From positions 1 through 43,103 of the IMG/VR virus record IMGVR_UViG_3300032257_000031: a stretch of 43,103 nt of DNA; one strand, written 5' to 3'. This stretch comes from a virus (lineage: Duplodnaviria; Caudoviricetes). Shown here one piece after another: positions 9,495-34,800 of this stretch. The position numbers and the translations under genes were made by a program. Each line of letters starts with the position of its first letter. The stretch's first letter is position 1. A model generated the notes under the pieces. It was not told where the DNA came from and did no database searches. It saw only the letters and a program-made list of their open reading frames with translations.

Positions 9495-9646
9495 AACGCT
9501 TGCGCTCCAAATTCTTTAACACACTGAGGTATTTCAGGGTGATTCTTGCATAACCGTTCAAACTTATTATGATTATGCTCAATAGCCGCATAGCCAAATA
9601 ATGTAAATATAGCGGTCATTAGCAATATGGTTAGAAGTGTTTTCAT
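9491..9646 (-). CDS. Small membrane protein
   Basis: MKTLLTILLMTAIFTLFGYAA; GGTGG RBS. Confidence 0.5.
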   Translation of the reverse strand: MKTLLTILLMTAIFTLFGYAAIEHNHNKFERLCKNHPEIPQCVKEFGAQAL

Positions 9647-9736
9647 ACCACCACCCTCAGAATAAAAGCCATATACATAAGTACAGCACCACCACATAAT
9701 CCAATTATTGCGCCTATTATTAAGGCTTGATTGTCG

Positions 9737-10048
9737 TTATTCATCTATCACCTCAATATATTTAACGGCTATACGAACGGCATCTAGGGCGTTACTACCA
9801 TCTGCACATTTTACGCCATCAACCGCGCTACTTTCTGAGTTATGCCCAGTCATAAGGTCGTCATACTCATTTACCCATATAACCTTTGGCTCTGGTTTAA
9901 TACGGTACTCGTATCTAGTGAAATCAAGCCTAGTGGTGTAAGCTGGCGATAACCTGCCATACCAGCCCCCTTCCGATAAGCGTTTTATCTGTATTTCCTT
10001 TCCGTCTTTATGCGCCTGAATAATGGCTATCATTTCATCGTGTGTCAT
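9737..10048 (-). CDS. Hypothetical phage protein
   Basis: GGAGG RBS; AHKDGKEIQ...YRIKPEPK pattern. Confidence 0.7.
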   Translation of the reverse strand: MTHDEMIAIIQAHKDGKEIQIKRLSEGGWYGRLSPAYTTRLDFTRYEYRIKPEPKVIWVNEYDDLMTGHNSESSAVDGVKCADGSNALDAVRIAVKYIEVIDE

Positions 10049-11621: not shown

Positions 11622-11909
11622 ATGCCGCGACAAAGAGCAGACAGAATCGACACCGGCCAAGCTGAGATAGTCAAAGCCCTGAGAAAAATGGGCTATTCAG
11701 TGATAACCGGCATGGATGATCTGCTAATCGGTCACAATGGCATCAACTATTGGATAGAGCTTAAACGCCCTGAGAGCCGTTCTAAGCGTACTGGCGAGAT
11801 ACTGCCATCATATATCAAAGAAGGGCAGAAACAGCTTCTAATTACGTATAAAGGCCAATACGCGATGTGCACAAGCCTAGATGATATTTTAAGGGTAATT
11901 AACCCCTAA
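11622..11909 (+). CDS. VRR-NUC / PD-(D/E)xK nuclease (putative resolvase)
   Basis: D.GQAEIVKALRKMGYSV...DLLIG...WIELK. Confidence 0.75.
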   Translation: MPRQRADRIDTGQAEIVKALRKMGYSVITGMDDLLIGHNGINYWIELKRPESRSKRTGEILPSYIKEGQKQLLITYKGQYAMCTSLDDILRVINP

Positions 11910-11923
11910 CAAGAGGAATAGAG

Positions 11924-12118
11924 ATGGCAACAAAAATCGAGGGCAGCGGATGGGGTGAGAATAAGGTTTTGCCAATAAAGATAATCCATGATGATTGTGG
12001 CGGCATTGTGTCACTAGAGGATGATTCTGGATGCGGCACGTCATGGACTGGCTGCTGGGGCGGGGTAAAAGTTAAGTGCGACAAATGTGAGTATGAAGAA
12101 TACATTCACGAAAACTAA
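11924..12118 (+). CDS. Small Cys-containing hypothetical protein
   Basis: HxxC...CxxC; GAGG RBS. Confidence 0.5.
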   Translation: MATKIEGSGWGENKVLPIKIIHDDCGGIVSLEDDSGCGTSWTGCWGGVKVKCDKCEYEEYIHEN

Positions 12119-13162: not shown

Positions 13163-13470
13163 TTAGCTTTGATGAGTTTTGGTCAATAGTGCCTAGAAAG
13201 GCTGGCAGCAAGCCAAAAGCTAGAAAGATATGGGACAAGCTTAGTAAAAAAAAGCAGGAAATTATCATTGAGGACTATCCGAAAAGATACATCAACACTG
13301 ATAAAGCCTATATTCCTTATCCGACTACGTACTTAAATGGTGAGTATTGGGAATGCGAGATTGAGGTAATTGAAAATGAAAGAAAACATGGAGCATATCG
13401 AAACGATAGTAGAGCGAAGCGCGTCCACGACAAGCTGCGAGAAATTGCCGAAAGAGACACTACCTCCTAA
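13159..13470 (+). CDS. Replication initiator C-terminal domain (O-like), lacking an N-terminal DNA-binding domain
   Basis: FDEFWSIVPRK..SK.KA.K.W.KL...YIPYPTTYLNG..WE; ATGA overlap at 13159. Confidence 0.7.
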   Translation: MISFDEFWSIVPRKAGSKPKARKIWDKLSKKKQEIIIEDYPKRYINTDKAYIPYPTTYLNGEYWECEIEVIENERKHGAYRNDSRAKRVHDKLREIAERDTTS

Positions 13471-13807
13471 ATGGGTAGCGGCTCTCTTTGCAAGGTTTCA
13501 GGTTCGTTATCTTCACAAGTGGACAAGTGCTATTGAAGGCATTGAAGAACTGGCTGTGCAAGAATGGGGTGAAATACTGGCAGGCGTTACACCCGATCAA
13601 ATAACAACCGGCTTGGCTAATTTGGATAGCGAATGGCCTCCAACAGCGCAGGGCTTTAGAGATTTATGCTTATGCAAGAGTACGAAGGAAGCATTTAAGC
13701 TATTTGCACCAGCACTACCAGCACCAAAAATAGCCGAGGAAGATTTCCAGAGCTTAATGGGTGAGATGAGAGGCATTCTAAATAAAGATAGCAACGATGA
13801 GGGCTAA
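13376..13807 (+). CDS. Lambda P-like helicase loader
   Basis: LFARF..RY..KW...EW...L...WPPT...FRDLC; overlaps the O-like gene. Confidence 0.65.
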   Translation: MKENMEHIETIVERSASTTSCEKLPKETLPPKWVAALFARFQVRYLHKWTSAIEGIEELAVQEWGEILAGVTPDQITTGLANLDSEWPPTAQGFRDLCLCKSTKEAFKLFAPALPAPKIAEEDFQSLMGEMRGILNKDSNDEG

Positions 13808-19677: not shown

Positions 19678-19816
19678 AACACATAGCTAAAGCATGTTTA
19701 TGCGGCATAATGTGGGCTATCGGATTATTAATGGCTTTGGTGGTTATGATTGAGATTAATAGCTATATTAGTAAAATGTGGTAAAATGTGGCTATGATAA
19801 CGAATAGACATGGATT

Positions 19817-20008
19817 ATGGATACCTTTAACCCTGAGTTATGGGGATACAAGAACGTGCGAGCCGAGCCGTTTGGTAACGGATGGATCGTTGTCGCAAAA
19901 GATCTACCAGTACTGATTGACGAAAATAATACTGGTGATTGGTTTTGCCCGACTCCAGCGTTTTACGAACAAGATTTTATTCCGGTAGCGCGGGCTTTAT
20001 TTGGCTAA
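19817..20008 (+). CDS. Hypothetical protein
   Basis: ORF track. Confidence 0.5.
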   Translation: MDTFNPELWGYKNVRAEPFGNGWIVVAKDLPVLIDENNTGDWFCPTPAFYEQDFIPVARALFG

Positions 20009-20024
20009 TTAAAGGTGTTTAAGC

Positions 20025-20231
20025 ATGAGAATGTCACCAAAGCGGCGCGAAACCATAAAAATGCAGATAGAACATGCCCTTAACATCGGCATGAATGTGT
20101 GCTTTGTTAGCAATAACGGATCGGCAAGAGAAAGGCGCGTTAATGGCATGACCCTGCATAAGTGGGAGTCATTTAAAATCAAAGGGATCAAACCCGACCT
20201 AATTATTTGTGATGACATAGGTGTTAATTAA
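20025..20231 (+). CDS. Small protein carrying a terminase-like Walker-B segment
   Basis: KIKGIKPDLIICDDI vs TerL KIRG...RPGLIICDDM; AAGGT RBS; TAATG coupling to the Q-like gene. Confidence 0.65.
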   Translation: MRMSPKRRETIKMQIEHALNIGMNVCFVSNNGSARERRVNGMTLHKWESFKIKGIKPDLIICDDIGVN

Positions 20232-20812
20232 TGAACTCTGATATTATCTCGCACCTTAACCCTAAAACACAGACCATAGCGGCTACTATAGGCGGCTACG
20301 GAGGACTTAAACCAGAAGATATATGTCATGCCCTATCTGGCCTAAATAAAGGCTCATACACGCTAGGACTCGCCATGCACGGATATGAGGACGCCAGAAA
20401 AGATTTAACAAATTGTTTGATCGAATCAATCCAAGACAAAATAAAACCGCTCGGCACGAATTACACTAGAATATTAGCCTTAATCGCAGTACATGAAGAA
20501 ATTGGCGATAGCCCATGTCAAGTATGCAAGGGGCGCGGATTCGTTTATAAGCAAATAGAACACCCCGATCAAATAGCAATGACTGAAAACGGACTACTTC
20601 CAACGCCATGCACCGCACCGCAATGCGTAGAAGGCGGATATAGAATGACAGACCGGGAGCGCGGCGAACTCATAGCCGAAGCGATAGATCAAAATTACAC
20701 CCAATCAGCATGGCGTAACGGCTGGTCATGGGATTTATCCGAAGCACTTTCTACGCTGTCAGAATGGCAGCATAAACTTAATATTCATTTAGGCGTGAGA
20801 CTGGAAAGATGA
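20231..20812 (+). CDS. Q-like late antitermination protein
   Basis: CQVCKGRG...C...C Zn finger; position at the end of the nin-like region. Confidence 0.55.
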   Translation: MNSDIISHLNPKTQTIAATIGGYGGLKPEDICHALSGLNKGSYTLGLAMHGYEDARKDLTNCLIESIQDKIKPLGTNYTRILALIAVHEEIGDSPCQVCKGRGFVYKQIEHPDQIAMTENGLLPTPCTAPQCVEGGYRMTDRERGELIAEAIDQNYTQSAWRNGWSWDLSEALSTLSEWQHKLNIHLGVRLER

Positions 20813-20997
20813 TCGGATTAGCCCAGATAAAGCCGGAAGGATATGCTTGCATTGTCACATGCCATAGCAAGGGCTATAAATTACCCTATATCAGTAATTG
20901 TCGCGGTGTTGTCGTGGACAATCAGGCTTACACCATGAAGGAATATTCTCGACTATATGTTAAACAGCAGCCATTTTATAAGGGAGCGCAGATATGA
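20809..20997 (+). CDS. Small protein starting with a capsid E-loop-like motif
   Basis: GLAQIKPEG; ATGA overlap with the Q-like gene. Confidence 0.55.
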   Translation: MIGLAQIKPEGYACIVTCHSKGYKLPYISNCRGVVVDNQAYTMKEYSRLYVKQQPFYKGAQI

Positions 20998-21143
20998 AAA
21001 TTAGACGTCTTGATGTTGGCGACGAATTCAAAATAGCCTATTTTCTTGGTATGCGCGCACTCAGAAGGATCGGACATTCAAACAACAAAATATTGAAAGA
21101 TATATTTAAAAAACACCCATTTTATAGAGGCACAGGGCAATGA
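20994..21143 (+). CDS. Hypothetical 49-aa protein (not in ORF track)
   Basis: ATGA overlaps at both ends; GGAG RBS. Confidence 0.5.
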   Translation: MKIRRLDVGDEFKIAYFLGMRALRRIGHSNNKILKDIFKKHPFYRGTGQ

Positions 21144-21460
21144 AAAGACGTTCATTTTTGAAATTATTAGGCGGTGCAGCAGTAGCGGCAACAGCGCCAG
21201 GCGTAGCTATAGAGGCGGCGGTTAAGCCAGAGATTAAGAAAAGTGCAGGGGTAGCGGATAAAAGCAGCCTTGGCCTAGCCGAAATCAAGCAAGAAGGAGT
21301 GGTTGTTAAAAGTGAATTTGGAAATGCACTATGGCCTGGCGCAGAAAAATACTATAAAGCATCTTATGATACCTATAGCCATGAATTGGCTAAAGCATTG
21401 GCTGAATCAATGCGAGAAACACAGAAAAAGGTCGTGTCCAATGTAAAATATGGCTTTTAA
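21140..21460 (+). CDS. Tat-signal protein composed of permuted major-capsid segments
   Basis: MKRRSFLK plus hydrophobic stretch; ALWPG, GLAEIKQEG and ALAESMRET match the MCP. Confidence 0.8.
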   Translation: MKRRSFLKLLGGAAVAATAPGVAIEAAVKPEIKKSAGVADKSSLGLAEIKQEGVVVKSEFGNALWPGAEKYYKASYDTYSHELAKALAESMRETQKKVVSNVKYGF

Positions 21461-21515
21461 GTAGATTTATATCGCAATAATTGCTACTATTAACTAAACA
21501 ATTCCCCCGTTCCCC

Positions 21516-21535
21516 GCCCCTTTTCAGGGGCTTTT
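21516..21535 (+). terminator. Rho-independent terminator
   Basis: GCCCCT-tttc-AGGGGC-TTTT between convergent operons. Confidence 0.6.
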
Positions 21536-21562
21536 GAGGTATAAAGACCAACTCGCTTGTAT

Positions 21563-21712
21563 TTAGGCGTTATCTAATTGCTTTAGCTTACGAAGTGCTA
21601 CTTGGTAAGCGATATAAAGCGGTAACGCTGGCGGCTTATTAACCGGACAATCGTACTCATAGCCAAAGGCCTTGATATATTGCTCACGCATGAATTTTTC
21701 ACCTTGTTTCAT
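21563..21712 (-). CDS. Hypothetical 49-aa protein (not in ORF track)
   Basis: MKQGEKFMREQYIKAFGYEY...; GGGGA RBS. Confidence 0.45.
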   Translation of the reverse strand: MKQGEKFMREQYIKAFGYEYDCPVNKPPALPLYIAYQVALRKLKQLDNA

Positions 21713-21763
21713 TGTATTCCCCTTATAAGCCCACTAGCCACAATCGACTAGGGGCTATATTGT

Positions 21764-23944
21764 TTATTTATCGATAACGACTAGAACAGTATTGATTCCC
21801 GTTCCTGATTCTTTGAAAGATCCCTCTGGAAGCTCTATTTTTTCGCCCCCAAGATTATCGAACCAAGCGCGGAAAGCTTCGCACTTCTTATCGGAGCGGA
21901 AAAAAGGGCTAGGTGACATGATAGCCACAAGCCGACCGGTATCGCTTAGCTGTTTATACGCCCGCATGACATGATCAACATCTTGCAGGTTTTCAAAAGG
22001 CGGATTCATTAAAACACGATCATAAGTTGTTATTTCTTCCCATTTAACGGTTAAAAAATCACGCTTTTCTATCAAATAGTCTTTAGCGTCGGCTATTTCC
22101 GCTAGTGTGTGATTGATTTCAAAGCCTTTTACCTCAGAGCAAAGAGGCGCAACCGCATCGGCAATAGAGCATGATCCTAGATTCGGCTCTAGTATTCTGT
22201 GATGTGGTTGAATATCGGCATAATCTATCATTAAATCGATAACGGCTTTAGGTGTTGGGAAATAGCCTGGTATTTTAGAGAATTGCAGCCCGTCAATGGT
22301 GCGTTTTAGCTCCTCGGCTTGCTTTTGTTCTTCGGTCTTGCCAGTAATCAAAGACCAAAGCGCAACGGCTTCGGGTGTCGTGTGGTGTGGCTCGCCAGTA
22401 CATACAGAGTATGAATGATAACCATTAGGGATATTTGTTTTAACTGTTCCCATAAGATCAAATACGGCTTTTTTGCTGGTTATATTGGCAAGCACAGCGG
22501 GAACTGTTCCAGCATCGTGCATATCAGCCAAGCCTAAAAGGGCTTGCTGTGTTCTTTGCAGCTTTTCCCCCTCTAGGCGTGAATGGTTAGCCTGCGCTAG
22601 TCGTTTTGCTGTATTGGTCGGACGATCTGCAAGCTTGTTGTCGATAACCGGCTGCATTTTGTCAGCCATTGCGCGGAACTTCTCGCCCATGCCCTTGCGG
22701 GGCTTTGGTGGCTCATCGTTTGGGGATTCACCAGACAGAGAAGCAAGAAAAGACTCGGCGCGCTCTTTATCTTCAAAGGCAAAGCCGCCAGGCGTTGATC
22801 CCCATTTGCGAGAGTACCAACCACCAGCGGCCTTGGCATCGTTTCGCACTTCGTTGAAGGTGTCACGATCTAGCCTTGTATCAGGAACAACCATATACAT
22901 GACAAAACCTTTTTTAGTATGTGTGTGCTCCTCAATGTGGGCTTGAATTAAGCTAGAAGATCGAGCAACGGCAGGAGCCGCCACAACTGGCGCGGCTTCA
23001 AACTCAGCCACATAGGATCCTGTTTCTAGGCTCACGCCTTTATAATTGCCGGAAATATCGACACCAGACAGGGCTTGATAAACAGCATCAGACAGCCATT
23101 GACCGCCAATACGCGCATTATTTTCGTATTCGACGCCATAAGACAGGCAAATGTCTTGCCCTACTAGGGTTTTAACTGATTCGCTAATGGTGCGTGACTC
23201 GATTACATACTTAGATTGACCAAGTACAGTAGAAACAGCGGTAGAATATGCGCTATTATCGTTTTCGTAGATGTCATCCATGCCGTTAAAAGATCCATAT
23301 TGATACTTATCAGTGATCTTTTTAATTTCTGAGGCTGGCGCGCCATCCGTCCAGGATACGCTGATAGAGTTACCCATAGAGAAACTATCGGAAGTGACAG
23401 AAAACTTAATATGGGGATAAGCTTGCTTAAGCTCCTTTTTCATATTCTTAGCCGCCCGCGCATGGCTTGACATTCCAGCGTCCAAGCCAATAGCCCACGG
23501 ATACAAGGCGCGAAGCTCATCGGCTTTAGCAGATACCTGGCGAGACTTGTCGGCTTGTTCGGCTTCTCGCTCGCGGTTTTGTTCGGCTATCTCAGCTTGT
23601 CGATCTGTTCTTTGCTCAGGTGTTTCGCGGTTGTCATCTATCGGCATTGCTTCGCGGGCAACTGGCAAAGCGCCTTTAACGGCTTCAATAACTTGATCGG
23701 CGTTATCCTTAGTGATCATCCAGTCGAACTGATCGCCAATTTCACAAAAAAGATCCTCGGCTTTTTGGTTTTCAGTACCCGAAAACATAGTACTAATAAT
23801 ATACTCAGATTCATCTACGCCAGTGACACCAGACTTTTGCAGCCGCTCAAAGCGTAACCGGTCAAGTTCTTTTATAGCGTGCATAGCATTTTTGTGCCAT
23901 TGGTGGCGGTTAGTTGTTCCTGCTGGTAGTTGAAATTTATTCAT
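21764..23944 (-). CDS. Polyvalent protein: LPD29-like domain plus N6-adenine DNA methyltransferase (DarB-like antirestriction candidate)
   Basis: AAKNMKKELKQAYP.IKFSV.S....GNSI.VSWTDG (LPD29-like); YFPTP, ILEPNLGS, VLMNPPF, GRLVAIM, LPEGSFKESGT. Confidence 0.85.
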   Translation of the reverse strand: MNKFQLPAGTTNRHQWHKNAMHAIKELDRLRFERLQKSGVTGVDESEYIISTMFSGTENQKAEDLFCEIGDQFDWMITKDNADQVIEAVKGALPVAREAMPIDDNRETPEQRTDRQAEIAEQNREREAEQADKSRQVSAKADELRALYPWAIGLDAGMSSHARAAKNMKKELKQAYPHIKFSVTSDSFSMGNSISVSWTDGAPASEIKKITDKYQYGSFNGMDDIYENDNSAYSTAVSTVLGQSKYVIESRTISESVKTLVGQDICLSYGVEYENNARIGGQWLSDAVYQALSGVDISGNYKGVSLETGSYVAEFEAAPVVAAPAVARSSSLIQAHIEEHTHTKKGFVMYMVVPDTRLDRDTFNEVRNDAKAAGGWYSRKWGSTPGGFAFEDKERAESFLASLSGESPNDEPPKPRKGMGEKFRAMADKMQPVIDNKLADRPTNTAKRLAQANHSRLEGEKLQRTQQALLGLADMHDAGTVPAVLANITSKKAVFDLMGTVKTNIPNGYHSYSVCTGEPHHTTPEAVALWSLITGKTEEQKQAEELKRTIDGLQFSKIPGYFPTPKAVIDLMIDYADIQPHHRILEPNLGSCSIADAVAPLCSEVKGFEINHTLAEIADAKDYLIEKRDFLTVKWEEITTYDRVLMNPPFENLQDVDHVMRAYKQLSDTGRLVAIMSPSPFFRSDKKCEAFRAWFDNLGGEKIELPEGSFKESGTGINTVLVVIDK

Positions 23945-26149: not shown

Positions 26150-26461
26150 ATGATTGATTCCAGTAAGCTGCTTAGTAGCATGCAAGAAACTAATTCCATC
26201 CTTAAAGATGCTTTGCGCCCCACAAACACGCAAGAATGTTTATATTACGGGTACAAGCTATCCAATATTGATTGTGACGATATTGAGACGACTTTTCGGG
26301 ATATATGTATTGGTGCAGAAAGAGACGACGAAAGGGCTATTAAAGAGCGGGTTAAAATATTCCTTCCTGATTCAGGAGATGAAATAGACTTAGAAGATGT
26401 GTTGCGATTTTCCGCTAAGCATTGTCGAGGCATTTACGACAGAGTTGGGAGCGAGATATGA
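26150..26461 (+). CDS. Hypothetical protein
   Basis: GAGGT RBS; ATGA overlap with the next gene. Confidence 0.6.
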   Translation: MIDSSKLLSSMQETNSILKDALRPTNTQECLYYGYKLSNIDCDDIETTFRDICIGAERDDERAIKERVKIFLPDSGDEIDLEDVLRFSAKHCRGIYDRVGSEI

Positions 26462-26922
26462 AAAGACGTAATTTCCTAAAAGCACTTGGTTGCGCCCCAT
26501 TACTATATGCTGCTCCAGCTATTGCGATACCCGAAAAAAAATCGATCGTTCCGAAAACGGTGAGCGAGTTGAACGAAATGATTTTGGCTTACCTGCCTAA
26601 CGATCCAGTAATTAATTATGGCGACGCGATAGCTATATCAAGTATTGGCATAATCCCGCCATCTGCATATAAAGATATGTCGAAATCTAAGCATCACAGT
26701 TATCGCCATGAGTATGTTGTCGCTCAGTACCGCAAAAACATAGATTACGAAGAAGATGACGAAGTAGAAAGCCTCGTCATGCTTGCTTGGCTAGATTTTC
26801 AGAAAAAGGCGAAGGGGGCTAAAAAGATGTATGTGCGGAGAAACATGGAACTAAGCCATGTAACCGATCGGGGTAATATGACGGATTGGCGTATTGCTGG
26901 CCGGTATTCATTTTACCGATGA
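26458..26922 (+). CDS. Tat-signal protein with capsid P-domain-like segments
   Basis: MKRRNFLK...AIA signal; YRH......Y.......EDD..E and KMYVRRNMEL...D...RYSF match the MCP. Confidence 0.75.
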   Translation: MKRRNFLKALGCAPLLYAAPAIAIPEKKSIVPKTVSELNEMILAYLPNDPVINYGDAIAISSIGIIPPSAYKDMSKSKHHSYRHEYVVAQYRKNIDYEEDDEVESLVMLAWLDFQKKAKGAKKMYVRRNMELSHVTDRGNMTDWRIAGRYSFYR

Positions 26923-30605: not shown

Positions 30606-30753
30606 TTGGGAGCTGGGCACACTTGATGCCAGTGATGAGTGGGTAAGGGGTCATTTGGGCGCTTTATCCGATATTCTTGAAGTGACGGTTGAAGGCCTTG
30701 AATATGAAAGTGAGATCGAAAAAGAGATAAAGGAAGCCGCTCATGGAGAATGA
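30511..30753 (+). CDS. Hypothetical head-module protein
   Basis: F..WK.DP.TQ motif typical of the post-portal gene. Confidence 0.6.
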   Translation: MEKETFGLWKNDPTTQAVWRAIQLKHKHLQRDWELGTLDASDEWVRGHLGALSDILEVTVEGLEYESEIEKEIKEAAHGE

Positions 30754-31054
30754 ATCCGGTTATGATCCGTTAGATTTACGCGTCTTGATTCGCCTTGACG
30801 AAGTAGATGATACATTTGAAAACTCCAAGATTATTAAGCTCGAAAAGACCGTTAATGAAGGGAATATGCAGCAAGTCACAGGCACTATCATTGCTTGCGG
30901 TGAAAATGCGTTTTGCGAGTTAAATAATAAGCCGAAAGCTGGCGACAGAGTGGTTATCGGTAAATATGTTGGTTGGCTAACAACCGGCGACGACGAGAAA
31001 GAATACAGAATCATCAATGATGAAGACGTAATTGCATTTAGGAGAGAGAAATGA
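30743..31054 (+). CDS. groES: GroES-like co-chaperonin
   Basis: PLDLRVLI...GTIIACG...K.GDRV..GKY.G...EYRIINDEDVIA. Confidence 0.85.
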   Translation: MENESGYDPLDLRVLIRLDEVDDTFENSKIIKLEKTVNEGNMQQVTGTIIACGENAFCELNNKPKAGDRVVIGKYVGWLTTGDDEKEYRIINDEDVIAFRREK

Positions 31055-33000: not shown

Positions 33001-33030
33001 ATGGCAGTTATAACATCGGGAAATCACCCT
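33001..33030 (+). CDS. Major capsid protein, exon 1 (MAVITSGNHP)
   Basis: AAGGAG RBS; joins in frame to KALWPGV at 33919. Confidence 0.88.
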
Positions 33031-33918
33031 TCTTGCTGAGGGGCCTTAACAAGTAATTGTTGAGTAAACAGGCATTTAACTGCTGGGAACTCTCGTAGGC
33101 CTATGGTAGGATAATACATGGCGACATGTATCGACCCCTTATAATCCATAGGATAGAGACAATCAGCATCCAATCTTAAAATGTATTACGTATATAGACT
33201 TCTTAATAAAGCCAATCAGAAATCATACATTGGTATAACCTCCAGAACCGTAAAAGAACGGTGGCTTGAACATGTTTCAAGAATCAAGTCCGGTAGGAAC
33301 AGTAGGATATATGCAGCTTTAAGAAAGTATGGACAGGATGGCTTTGAAGTCATCACTCTTGAGGAAACTAGCTCAGAAGATGAAGTGAGAAAACTAGAGG
33401 AAGATTACATTAAACTCTATGACTCATATAGTAATGGCTACAACTGCAATTATGGCGGGTGTGGCACATTATGTTTTTCTGACGAAATCCGGAAAAAGAT
33501 TAGCAAAGCCCAGATCGGCAAAGTCATATCTTTAGAAACAAGAAAGAAAATGTCCGAAGCGAAACTTGGAGACACCAGATGCGCTAAGCATTTCGGAGAA
33601 CATACCTCTAAGGGCGGCAAAAATCCCAGATCAAAATATTTTTTAATCGGATTGCCAGATGGCACCGAAAAAGCCATACAAGGGATTAGAGAATTTTGCA
33701 GAGATAATAATTTGCAATATGCCAAACTTAGCTCGAAAGGTAAGACCAAGGGATTTAGCATTTTAAGAAGGTTCATCGACTATCCAGAAATGGAGTACAC
33801 TCAAGTGAGTGGAAATGGTGCCTACCCCTCAGGGGTAAAGATATAGTCAGCTCTGCATGGAGACATGCAGCAGTCGAAAGACGGGCAAGGGGTTAACGAA
33901 CCTTGTTGAACATAAAGG
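33031..33918 (+). mobile_element. Group I intron (IA2-like), 888 nt
   Basis: P1 CCCU|UC paired to GAGGGG with U-G at the splice site; P AACUGCUGGGAA 33078; Q AAUCAGCA 33161; P7 GACUAU 33778 / AUAGUC 33843; P3 GGCAUU/GGUGCC; P7.1, P7.2, P8 and P9 hairpins; terminal G 33918. Confidence 0.93.
33181..33846 (+). CDS. Intron-encoded GIY-YIG homing endonuclease with NUMOD3-like repeats
   Basis: YVYRL.N..N.KSYIGIT...RW.EH, E..YI..YDS..NGYN, SDEIRKKISKA / SLETRKKMSEA. Confidence 0.92.
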   Translation: MYYVYRLLNKANQKSYIGITSRTVKERWLEHVSRIKSGRNSRIYAALRKYGQDGFEVITLEETSSEDEVRKLEEDYIKLYDSYSNGYNCNYGGCGTLCFSDEIRKKISKAQIGKVISLETRKKMSEAKLGDTRCAKHFGEHTSKGGKNPRSKYFLIGLPDGTEKAIQGIREFCRDNNLQYAKLSSKGKTKGFSILRRFIDYPEMEYTQVSGNGAYPSGVKI

Positions 33919-34800
33919 AAAGCACTCTGGCCGGGCGTAAAAGCATGGTGGGGTCATGAATACGATGAGTGGAATGAAGAATATAAAGACTTATTCGACA
34001 TGGACACTTCAACCCAAAACTACGAAGAAGATGTACAGCTAACCGGCTTCCAAGCTGCTCCTATTAAGGGCGAAGGCGCTGGCGTTGCATACGATTCTGA
34101 AACACAAGGCTTTGTAACTCGTTACAAGCATGTTGTTTACGGTTTGGGCTACATTGTTACGCGCGAAGAAATGGAAGACGGCTTGTACGAAAAAGTCTCT
34201 AAAGGCCGTGTTACTGCATTAGCAGCCGCTATGCGTAATACAAAAGAAACTGTTGGCGCAAATATCTACAACCGCGCATTTAACACTTCTTACACCTTTG
34301 GCGACGGCAAGCGAATGATCTCTAACGATCATCCAAATGCTATCGGCGGCACGTTCTCTAACGTGGCAGATACGGCGTCCGATTTATCGGAAGCGTCTAT
34401 CGAGGACTTGAATATTCAGATCATGGGGGCTAAAGGCCCGAAAGATTTGCAAATCAACCTTATGCCACGCTGCTTAATCGTTCCGCGCCAAGAATTCTAT
34501 AATGCTAACCGCATTTTGAAATCTGTGCTGCAAAACGATACCGGCAATAACGCTATCAACGTACTGAAATCAACTAATGCACTCCCAGATGGCATTAAGG
34601 TGAACCATTACCTTACTGACTCTGACGCATTCTTTATTCGTACCAGCGTTAAGAACGGCTTAAAGTGCTACCAACGACGCGCTATTGAGTTTACTAAAGA
34701 CAACGATTTCAGCACTGAAAACGCCCTTGCGAAAGCAACTGAGCGGTATTCTTTCGGTGTAACAGATGTTCGTGCTGTCTACGGAAACCCAGGCGTATAA
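33919..34800 (+). CDS. Major capsid protein, exon 2 (HK97 fold; spliced product 303 aa)
   Basis: KALWPG, A.IK.EG, YKH..Y.LGY.VTRE..ED.LY, ALA..M..TKE, GDG, DLSE, YLTD.DA.F, ERYSFG. Confidence 0.92.
   Translation, partial: KALWPGVKAWWGHEYDEWNEEYKDLFDMDTSTQNYEEDVQLTGFQAAPIKGEGAGVAYDSETQGFVTRYKHVVYGLGYIVTREEMEDGLYEKVSKGRVTALAAAMRNTKETVGANIYNRAFNTSYTFGDGKRMISNDHPNAIGGTFSNVADTASDLSEASIEDLNIQIMGAKGPKDLQINLMPRCLIVPRQEFYNANRILKSVLQNDTGNNAINVLKSTNALPDGIKVNHYLTDSDAFFIRTSVKNGLKCYQRRAIEFTKDNDFSTENALAKATERYSFGVTDVRAVYGNPGV

Follow-up and report, generated by a model that had tools for sequence, protein, structure and literature searches.

A phage gene was found to join a twin-arginine leader to rearranged pieces of a major capsid protein (MCP). 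It lies on IMG/VR record IMGVR_UViG_3300032257_000031, a complete phage record of 43,103 nt with terminal repeats, the whole of which is hereafter called the window. The gene product (the mosaic) consists of the leader and three blocks of a Mu-gpT-like MCP of the HK97 fold, in which the native order is broken. The analysis confirmed this structure and placed the gene in a family of 72 members. The open reading frame (ORF), its coordinates and its N-terminus agree with the initial annotation, as do the three gapless block alignments. Block scores in the following lines come from a position-specific scoring matrix (PSSM).

21140..21460, plus strand: mosaic gene, twin-arginine leader and capsid blocks, 106 amino acids (aa); ORF with 11 phmmer relatives and a 72-member family
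21140..21217, plus strand: twin-arginine leader, residues 1-26, K-R-R-S-F-L-K then 16 uncharged residues (TIGR01409, PF10518)
21263..21298, plus strand: block B, residues 42-53, corresponding to MCP 52-63, E-loop tip (18.6 bits, 0/3000 shuffles)
21299..21385, plus strand: block A, residues 54-82, corresponding to MCP 3-31, N-arm and helix (27.4 bits, 0/3000 shuffles)
21386..21445, plus strand: block D, residues 83-102, corresponding to MCP 107-126, spine helix (29.4 bits, 0/3000 shuffles)

The PSSM was built from 63 other MCPs and tested with 3000 shuffles, the block borders having been chosen after the fact, from the earlier finding. All three blocks were significant by this measure, whereas against the MCP of the window itself only block A was clear, with a BLOSUM62 score of 56 that none of 600 shuffles reached (maximum 47). 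Extension brought block D to 44, still within the upper end of the null distribution, and block B scored 19, not above chance. The blocks are not recent copies of the window's own MCP gene (exact DNA match of at most 9 nt). A hidden Markov model (HMM) of the 63 other MCPs ranked the mosaic ORF as the top non-MCP frame (E 3.6e-4, 17,283 frames), and one built on the initial 132 positions of 122 MCPs gave it E 3.2e-5 among 44,427 frames, the next frame being at 0.075. It was the sole significant non-MCP match in both scans, and block D alone reached E 8.6e-4 with an MCP HMM. In the reverse direction, the top matches of the family profile were prophage MCP frames of about 300 aa, matched in two pieces, in 28 of 33 bacterial genomes.

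The mosaic retains, in permuted order, 61 of the 303 MCP residues. It lacks the ordered N-arm, E-loop, P-domain and A-domain of 280-300 residues that characterize an HK97 MCP, and no Pfam or PHROGs capsid family matched it. The predicted model comprises a leader helix, disorder at residues 15-38 and a single long helix at 61-104 (pTM 0.35). A complex prediction of residues 30-106 with MCP exon 2 scored 0.00 and was counted neither for nor against an interaction. For the MCP, an AF2 model (pLDDT 89) gave Foldseek matches to HK97-fold capsids (E 1e-12), and a PDB sequence search returned Mu-gpT-like chains only (E 0.19-0.25). On this model, residues 14-25 were assigned to a putative N-arm helix, 37-90 to the E-loop (tip 52-72) and 100-128 to the spine helix. 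These element labels follow established knowledge of the HK97 fold.

The N-terminus had been annotated as a leader for the twin-arginine translocation (Tat) pathway. It scored 17.7 bits against TIGR01409, above the cut-off of 16.7, and 19.2 bits against PF10518, below the cut-off of 22.7. The general Tat motif, given in the available portions of PMC13673990 as Z-R-R-x-hydrophobic-hydrophobic between the n- and h-regions, is present as K-R-R-S-F-L; the strict S/T-R-R-x-F-L-K consensus is not, as a lysine precedes the arginine pair (RR). That preceding residue is K in 54/72 family members and S/T in none. RR itself is found in all 72 and an M..RRxF start in 71, in searches that themselves favoured this motif. 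The uncharged stretch after RR counts 16 residues in the window ORF and just 11-12 in 50/72 members. A candidate signal-peptidase site follows Ala23 (G-V-A, residues 21-23, judged by eye), a loose cleavage-like pattern occurs in 24/72 members, and only 9/33 members matched TIGR01409 at E 0.1. Because the uncharged stretch is so short in most members, tethering at TatBC or the membrane would be as likely as full export. The same portions of PMC13673990 state that the Tat pathway tolerates small unstructured hydrophilic substrates and that some Tat-incompatible passengers stall transport.

Searching 1.84 billion representatives with phmmer yielded 11 relatives (E 1e-8 to 9e-4, identity 40-54%), and two profile rounds with DNA-pattern scans brought the family to 72 distinct sequences of 59-136 aa, forming 19 clusters at 50% identity and 33 at 60%. 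Capsid blocks were mapped with a PSSM of 122 MCPs and a 20-bit bar, the 99th percentile of shuffled members being 19.7. The E-loop block (MCP 45-72) was present in 64/72 members, MCP 1-38 and MCP 160-190 in 34 each, MCP 137-155 in 31, MCP 95-134 in 11 and MCP 78-98 in five, while a C-terminal block, beyond MCP 192, was found in one member only. The search was seeded with the window ORF, which skews these frequencies in its favour, although it also brought up blocks that the query lacks. The blocks form 18 arrangements. At least two blocks occur in 61 members, 51 of which have them out of native order, which agrees with the initial reading of the window gene as a rearranged mosaic and not a truncation. 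The window's order, E-loop, N-arm, spine, recurs in members P0002, P0003 and P0015.

Several searches added few or no members. A first viral scan gave five matches, to the leader only, and no stretch of the family alignment was conserved enough for a locus scan. A DNA pattern combining the leader and LWPG hit six loci, none of which was accepted. The 27 metagenome pattern matches comprised four new members, the window itself and one duplicate, while the remainder either lay out of frame or were cellular Tat-type proteins of the ordinary kind, L197, L198 and L219 having the same minimal n-region. Sequence P0024 proved to be a truncated true MCP and was dropped. A word search with the mosaic sequence alone returned just the mosaic ORF, tblastn of GenBank phages gave chance helicase matches alone (E 2-8), and an ESM Atlas search (top feature match 0.89, top TM 0.44) returned no named family.

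Some further related genes were seen. At L186 of carrier G055 lie two more genes with MCP fragments (11759-12115 and 13444-13773): one has MCP 280-298, ends in a hydrophobic tail and lacks the RR leader, and the other is RR-led from a GTG start and has MCP 80-131. At L184 of G053, a tandem RR-led gene (9552-10001) directly upstream of a member has a weak phrog_371 A-domain match (E 0.22). A leaderless 122-aa ORF at L046 (7178-7594) has N-arm-like and E-loop-like stretches (E 0.075) and could be a mosaic without leader; a scan of 15,858 ORFs puts it in the background range, and it was not counted.

The family is under purifying selection at the protein level, a conclusion supported by seven pairs of sequences. 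The pair L195/L213 has a dN/dS of 0.17, with 0.20 for the capsid blocks alone (Fisher p 0.0018), and the six pairs among L367-L370, four alleles of another clade, range from 0.27 to 0.54. These values bear on the idea that the genes are functionless debris, in which illegitimate recombination puts MCP pieces behind a well-expressed leader and drift follows. The window ORF has no cluster partner at 90% identity, the short members vary, and dN/dS rises to 0.54 in one clade, as debris would have it. However, dN/dS is well below 1 in all seven pairs, protein motifs are conserved although the window blocks share no more than 69% DNA identity with any MCP gene, and the same design occurs across unrelated capsid families. 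We consider debris very unlikely, the least probable of the explanations weighed here.

In the window, the mosaic gene stands last in a run of overlapping genes that opens with a candidate Q-like antiterminator gene, and its ATG overlaps the stop of ORF 20994-21143. Three features flank it.

20231..20812, plus strand: Q-like antiterminator candidate (phrog_127, E 0.0029, weak; stop/start overlaps)
21127..21137, plus strand: GAGG / AGGG resembling a ribosome-binding site, read directly from the sequence
21516..21535, plus strand: GC-rich hairpin then four T, a possible operon terminator (fold)

Judged from its position behind the Q-like gene, the mosaic gene would be expressed ahead of the late genes. 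A terminator scan that requires five T missed the hairpin, and a promoter scan of the window gave 15 sites against 14.4 expected by chance. Both sequencing runs listed as holding the window sequence are microbial-mat DNA, with no RNA run among those listed. Positions 19800-23000 are identical in a Logan contig of 43,006 nt, possibly from the source sample; as this contig spans the mosaic region without difference, an assembly chimera is excluded. Two genes upstream of the mosaic gene, a 62-aa ORF (20809-20997, plus strand) has an E-loop-like start in register with MCP 55-76. Its 24 bits fall in the background range of the 15,858-ORF scan, and it was kept as a lead only, not as a mosaic.

The gene is accessory. 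A same-family MCP was present in three of five carrier records (the other two being 66% and 35% complete) and in four of five records of a second set (the fifth 20% complete). The mosaic gene was not found in 13 complete MCP relatives (11 from IMG/VR, two from GenBank), read nearly whole in a scan of short, ATG-only ORFs in which two IMG/VR records lacked the first 1-2.3 kb. Nor did the family profile find a short member in the 33 bacterial genomes with such prophages. One clade carries two to three RR-led genes per genome, each covering different blocks, and in the G055/G088-G092 clade the mosaic genes adjoin terminase genes.

The blocks are judged to be old because no DNA match to the carrier's own MCP gene exceeds 8-9 nt, the longest in four carriers. 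In the window, 113 of 122 reference MCPs fit block B better than the own MCP does, compared with 16 for block A and 59 for block D. For the N-arm, 160-180 and spine blocks of G088-G091, only 1-19 of the 122 references surpass the own MCP, compared with 74-113 for the E-loop block. The simplest history would be an ancestral leader and E-loop core, near the family consensus, which gained further blocks from local MCP genes.

We considered whether the protein could assist assembly, the leader anchoring capsid-like motifs at the inner membrane, where they would nucleate, time or buffer the building of the phage's own heads. The blocks track the carrier's own capsid type, and the terminase-adjoining position in the G055/G088-G092 clade would suit such a role. 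Its absence from the 13 complete relatives would not, nor would the free variation of block content and order, the poor fit of the E-loop block to the own MCP, or the location of the window gene, 11.5 kb from the MCP gene and behind the Q-like gene. We consider an assembly role improbable.

The same design was found over other capsid types. A leader-only DNA pattern detected 92 viral loci with 78 distinct ORFs. Thirty-two records were examined, picked by length (25-70 kb) and partly by eye, with four very long contigs and duplicates excluded; the nine with a completeness of 90% or more were read whole. In G063, G065, G074, G075 and G084, the best own-genome match of the RR-led tail stood above all 12 shuffles and was a major head protein by PHROGs. 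The tail in G061 matched an unlabelled 369-aa ORF that follows three large genes of terminase, portal and scaffold size, an MCP by position only, and in G057, G059 and G062 the best match lay within the shuffle range. The same held for G076 and G077, outside these nine. The tail-by-MCP matrix was diagonal across unrelated head families. A score of at least 48 against the own MCP was reached by 6/10 RR-led short ORFs and by 2/1,759 other short six-frame ORFs, in a control of eight genomes (G059 was dropped, its MCP not being identified) with a threshold set after seeing the data. The other four RR-led ORFs have a tail without capsid match.

PHROGs searches of 71 RR-led viral ORFs gave few structural matches and nothing for most: major head for L291 (E 0.003), scaffold for L274 (1.4e-5) and tail fibre for L272 (0.001). 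By eye, the tails of L275, L323, L248, L274, L282, L305, L272 and L324 resemble what we take to be terminase Walker-B, baseplate, decoration and tail motifs; PHROGs supported L274 and L272 only. A further conserved RR-led family of about 220-280 aa, apparently not of capsid mosaics, was seen in viral contigs (L241, L254, L268, L281, L284, L293, L300, L311, L312, L005). L241, the member tested, had no PHROGs match.

These tails bear on a further explanation, that the leader is the working part and occupies TatBC or signal-peptide chaperones, slowing host export, with the capsid pieces as mere passenger. The invariant RR of the 72 members agrees with it, as does the stalling of transport by some passengers (PMC13673990, in the portions available). 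So do the many phage RR-led tails without capsid match, among them the four just mentioned and the tail of a second such gene of the window, which scores 29 against the MCP. Against it, purifying selection acts on the capsid blocks too (dN/dS 0.20), and these retain the most conserved MCP residues and are far enriched over chance. We rate this explanation as improbable as an assembly role. The second gene (26458-26922, plus strand, 154 aa) lies directly upstream of that for the terminase large subunit; nothing among the window proteins matched its tail above chance (best 36).

A mosaic that is selected, patchy and fast-shuffling, that copies the most conserved motifs of its carrier's capsid type and is too incomplete to assemble, is best taken for a mimic directed at something by which capsid protein is recognized. 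With 61/303 residues and a pTM of 0.35, too little of the fold remains for a shell, and the patchy occurrence, together with two to three genes per genome covering different blocks, is what an arms-race gene would be expected to show. Our favoured reading, held tentatively and at slightly less than an even chance, is that the mosaic lures host capsid sensors as a decoy and either stays at the membrane or crosses it. The protein would bind capsid-sensing immune proteins without activating them, and the bound sensors would be held at, or carried through, the Tat translocase before the real MCP is made. The block set would be renewed occasionally by short-patch recombination from MCP genes onto the leader and E-loop core.

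Such a decoy has partial precedents. According to the available portions of PMC12578639, the staphylococcal Thoeris protein ThsB1 relies on the MCP E-loop for binding and on a P-loop far from it for activation, which makes the two steps separable. An E-loop bait would need binding without activation, as the ThsB1 case permits. For DSR2, the excerpted account (PMC11087589) describes DSAD1 as blocking the sensor by occupying the trigger's site. Avs7 is described in the accessible part of PMC13581612 as reading a broad folded surface, mainly of the A-domain.

Several points weigh against a decoy. Short peptides would mimic a folded surface of the Avs7 type badly, and the blocks come nearly all from MCP 1-190 (1/72 members reaches beyond 192), in a family whose ascertainment began from the window ORF. 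A cleaved, exported decoy would leave the cytoplasm; as sensors act there, the model requires that the sensor hitchhikes or that the tether stalls. Defence can also be set off by short MCP peptides, an example being the T4 Gol peptide with Lit. In 6/8 carriers with known MCP, the MCPs of other phages match the E-loop block better than the own one does, a mismatch that would suit interference with related phages at least as well and is partly a clade trait.

Interference with kin is the closest competitor, though we think it unlikely. Here the N-arm, E-loop and spine segments would dock at the MCP contacts of a co-infecting related phage and cap, mis-route or export its MCP, the carrier being spared by its diverged E-loop and pocket. 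The blocks correspond to subunit-contact elements of the HK97 fold, by established knowledge and by their placement on the MCP model. The glycine of the E-loop motif, present in 116/122 reference MCPs, is missing from the own MCP of G000, G052 and G088-G091, which lacks the G-L that the mosaics keep (one as S-L). However, G053 and G054 have the motif in both MCP gene and mosaic. The F-G-L-A form occurs in none of the 79 motifs read in the MCP subfamily of G088-G091, so the mismatch is partly inherited, and these four genomes are one clade. Self-toxicity would also be expected, because the N-arm, 160-180 and spine blocks of G088-G091 fit the own MCP better than 84-99% of references. An assembly role, Tat jamming and debris all fit worse than a decoy or kin interference. 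Extended beyond this family, the decoy reading would give tailed phages with many unrelated capsid types a shuffled 'epitope library', in which a twin-arginine leader precedes the most conserved motifs of the phage's head protein and capsid sensors are caught for Tat eviction or pinning. We regard this as doubtful.

The mosaic was compared with known systems. It shares with Tat signal peptides (TIGR01409 / PF10518) the Z-R-R-x-hydrophobic-hydrophobic motif at the n/h boundary and the Ala/Gly/Val-rich stretch that follows; partner proteins can leave the cell with such substrates as hitchhikers. Unlike these, it is phage-encoded, its passenger is a capsid patchwork of 60-80 residues without predicted globular fold, K stands for S/T before RR and the uncharged stretch is short in most members. 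The Mu-gpT-like MCP (PF10124, phrog_371; Alcaligenes phage QDWS535, Pelagibacter phage HTVC023P, Caulobacter phage RW) is the source of all three blocks, but the mosaic has about one fifth of the chain, permuted and without P- or A-domain sheet, and cannot form a shell subunit. Capsid-interference proteins of phage satellites, such as P4 Sid/Psu, PICI Cpm/Ccm and PLE TcaP, some of them capsid homologues, are likewise small and target the HK97-fold capsid. These are satellite genes with their own folds, whereas the mosaic belongs to an autonomous phage and combines a twin-arginine leader with short permuted motifs. Tad3-Tad7 are phage proteins that bind the Thoeris sensor ThsB, according to the available portions of PMC13728456. 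Like them and the anti-DSR2 protein DSAD1, the mosaic is small, accessory and phage-borne, and the proposed occupation of the trigger site would be the DSAD1 mode (PMC11087589; PMC13728456, both in excerpt). The excerpted accounts mention no shuffled trigger pieces and no export leader, and the sensor of the mosaic is hypothetical.

No family in Pfam, NCBIfam, PHROGs or PADLOC covers the mosaic tail, nor did any sensor blocker match. Open-licence PMC and bioRxiv full text, which leaves subscription papers outside its scope, yielded no published description of a capsid-mosaic class, and the gene class is apparently undescribed. Among the major triggers of bacterial immunity are capsid proteins (Avs7, Dsr1, Thoeris; PMC13581612, PMC12578639, in the portions available), which phages can hardly change. 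If the proposed function is true, an export leader followed by rearranged capsid motifs would represent a new design for counter-defence, or for conflict between phages, and, within the open literature searched, the first phage use of the Tat pathway. The mosaics would map which capsid motifs and surfaces bacterial immunity recognizes in nature, and each natural mosaic would be a 60-130-residue bait, clonable for fishing out new sensors. The family is, in addition, a clear case of new genes arising by motif shuffling of an essential gene.

The MCP gene of the window lies in the head region (27-41 kb), which holds terminase, portal, GroES-like, head and connector genes, and is split by an intron.

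33001..33030, plus strand: MCP exon 1, residues 1-10 (matches the N-termini of uninterrupted relatives)
33031..33918, plus strand: group I-like intron, 888 nt (RF00028, 40.9 bits, E 8.9e-9, below the gathering score of 50)
33181-33846, plus strand: GIY-YIG endonuclease in the MCP intron (PF01541)
33919..34800, plus strand: MCP exon 2, residues 11-303, Mu-gpT-like, HK97 fold (phrog_371 E 1.4e-8, PF10124)

The MCP numbering of the initial annotation is correct for the spliced gene (exons 33001-33030 and 33919-34800) and valid for that alone. A U precedes the intron and a G ends it, and the MCP genes of the relatives read are uninterrupted at this position. The endonuclease is of the GIY-YIG/NUMOD3 homing type, and the intron sits after codon 10. 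The GroES-like co-chaperonin gene of the head cluster (30743-31054, plus strand) is also present in related phages. Convergent with the mosaic gene is a 726-aa gene (21764-23944, minus strand) with a C-terminal methyltransferase-like domain, whose product resembles large polyvalent phage proteins.
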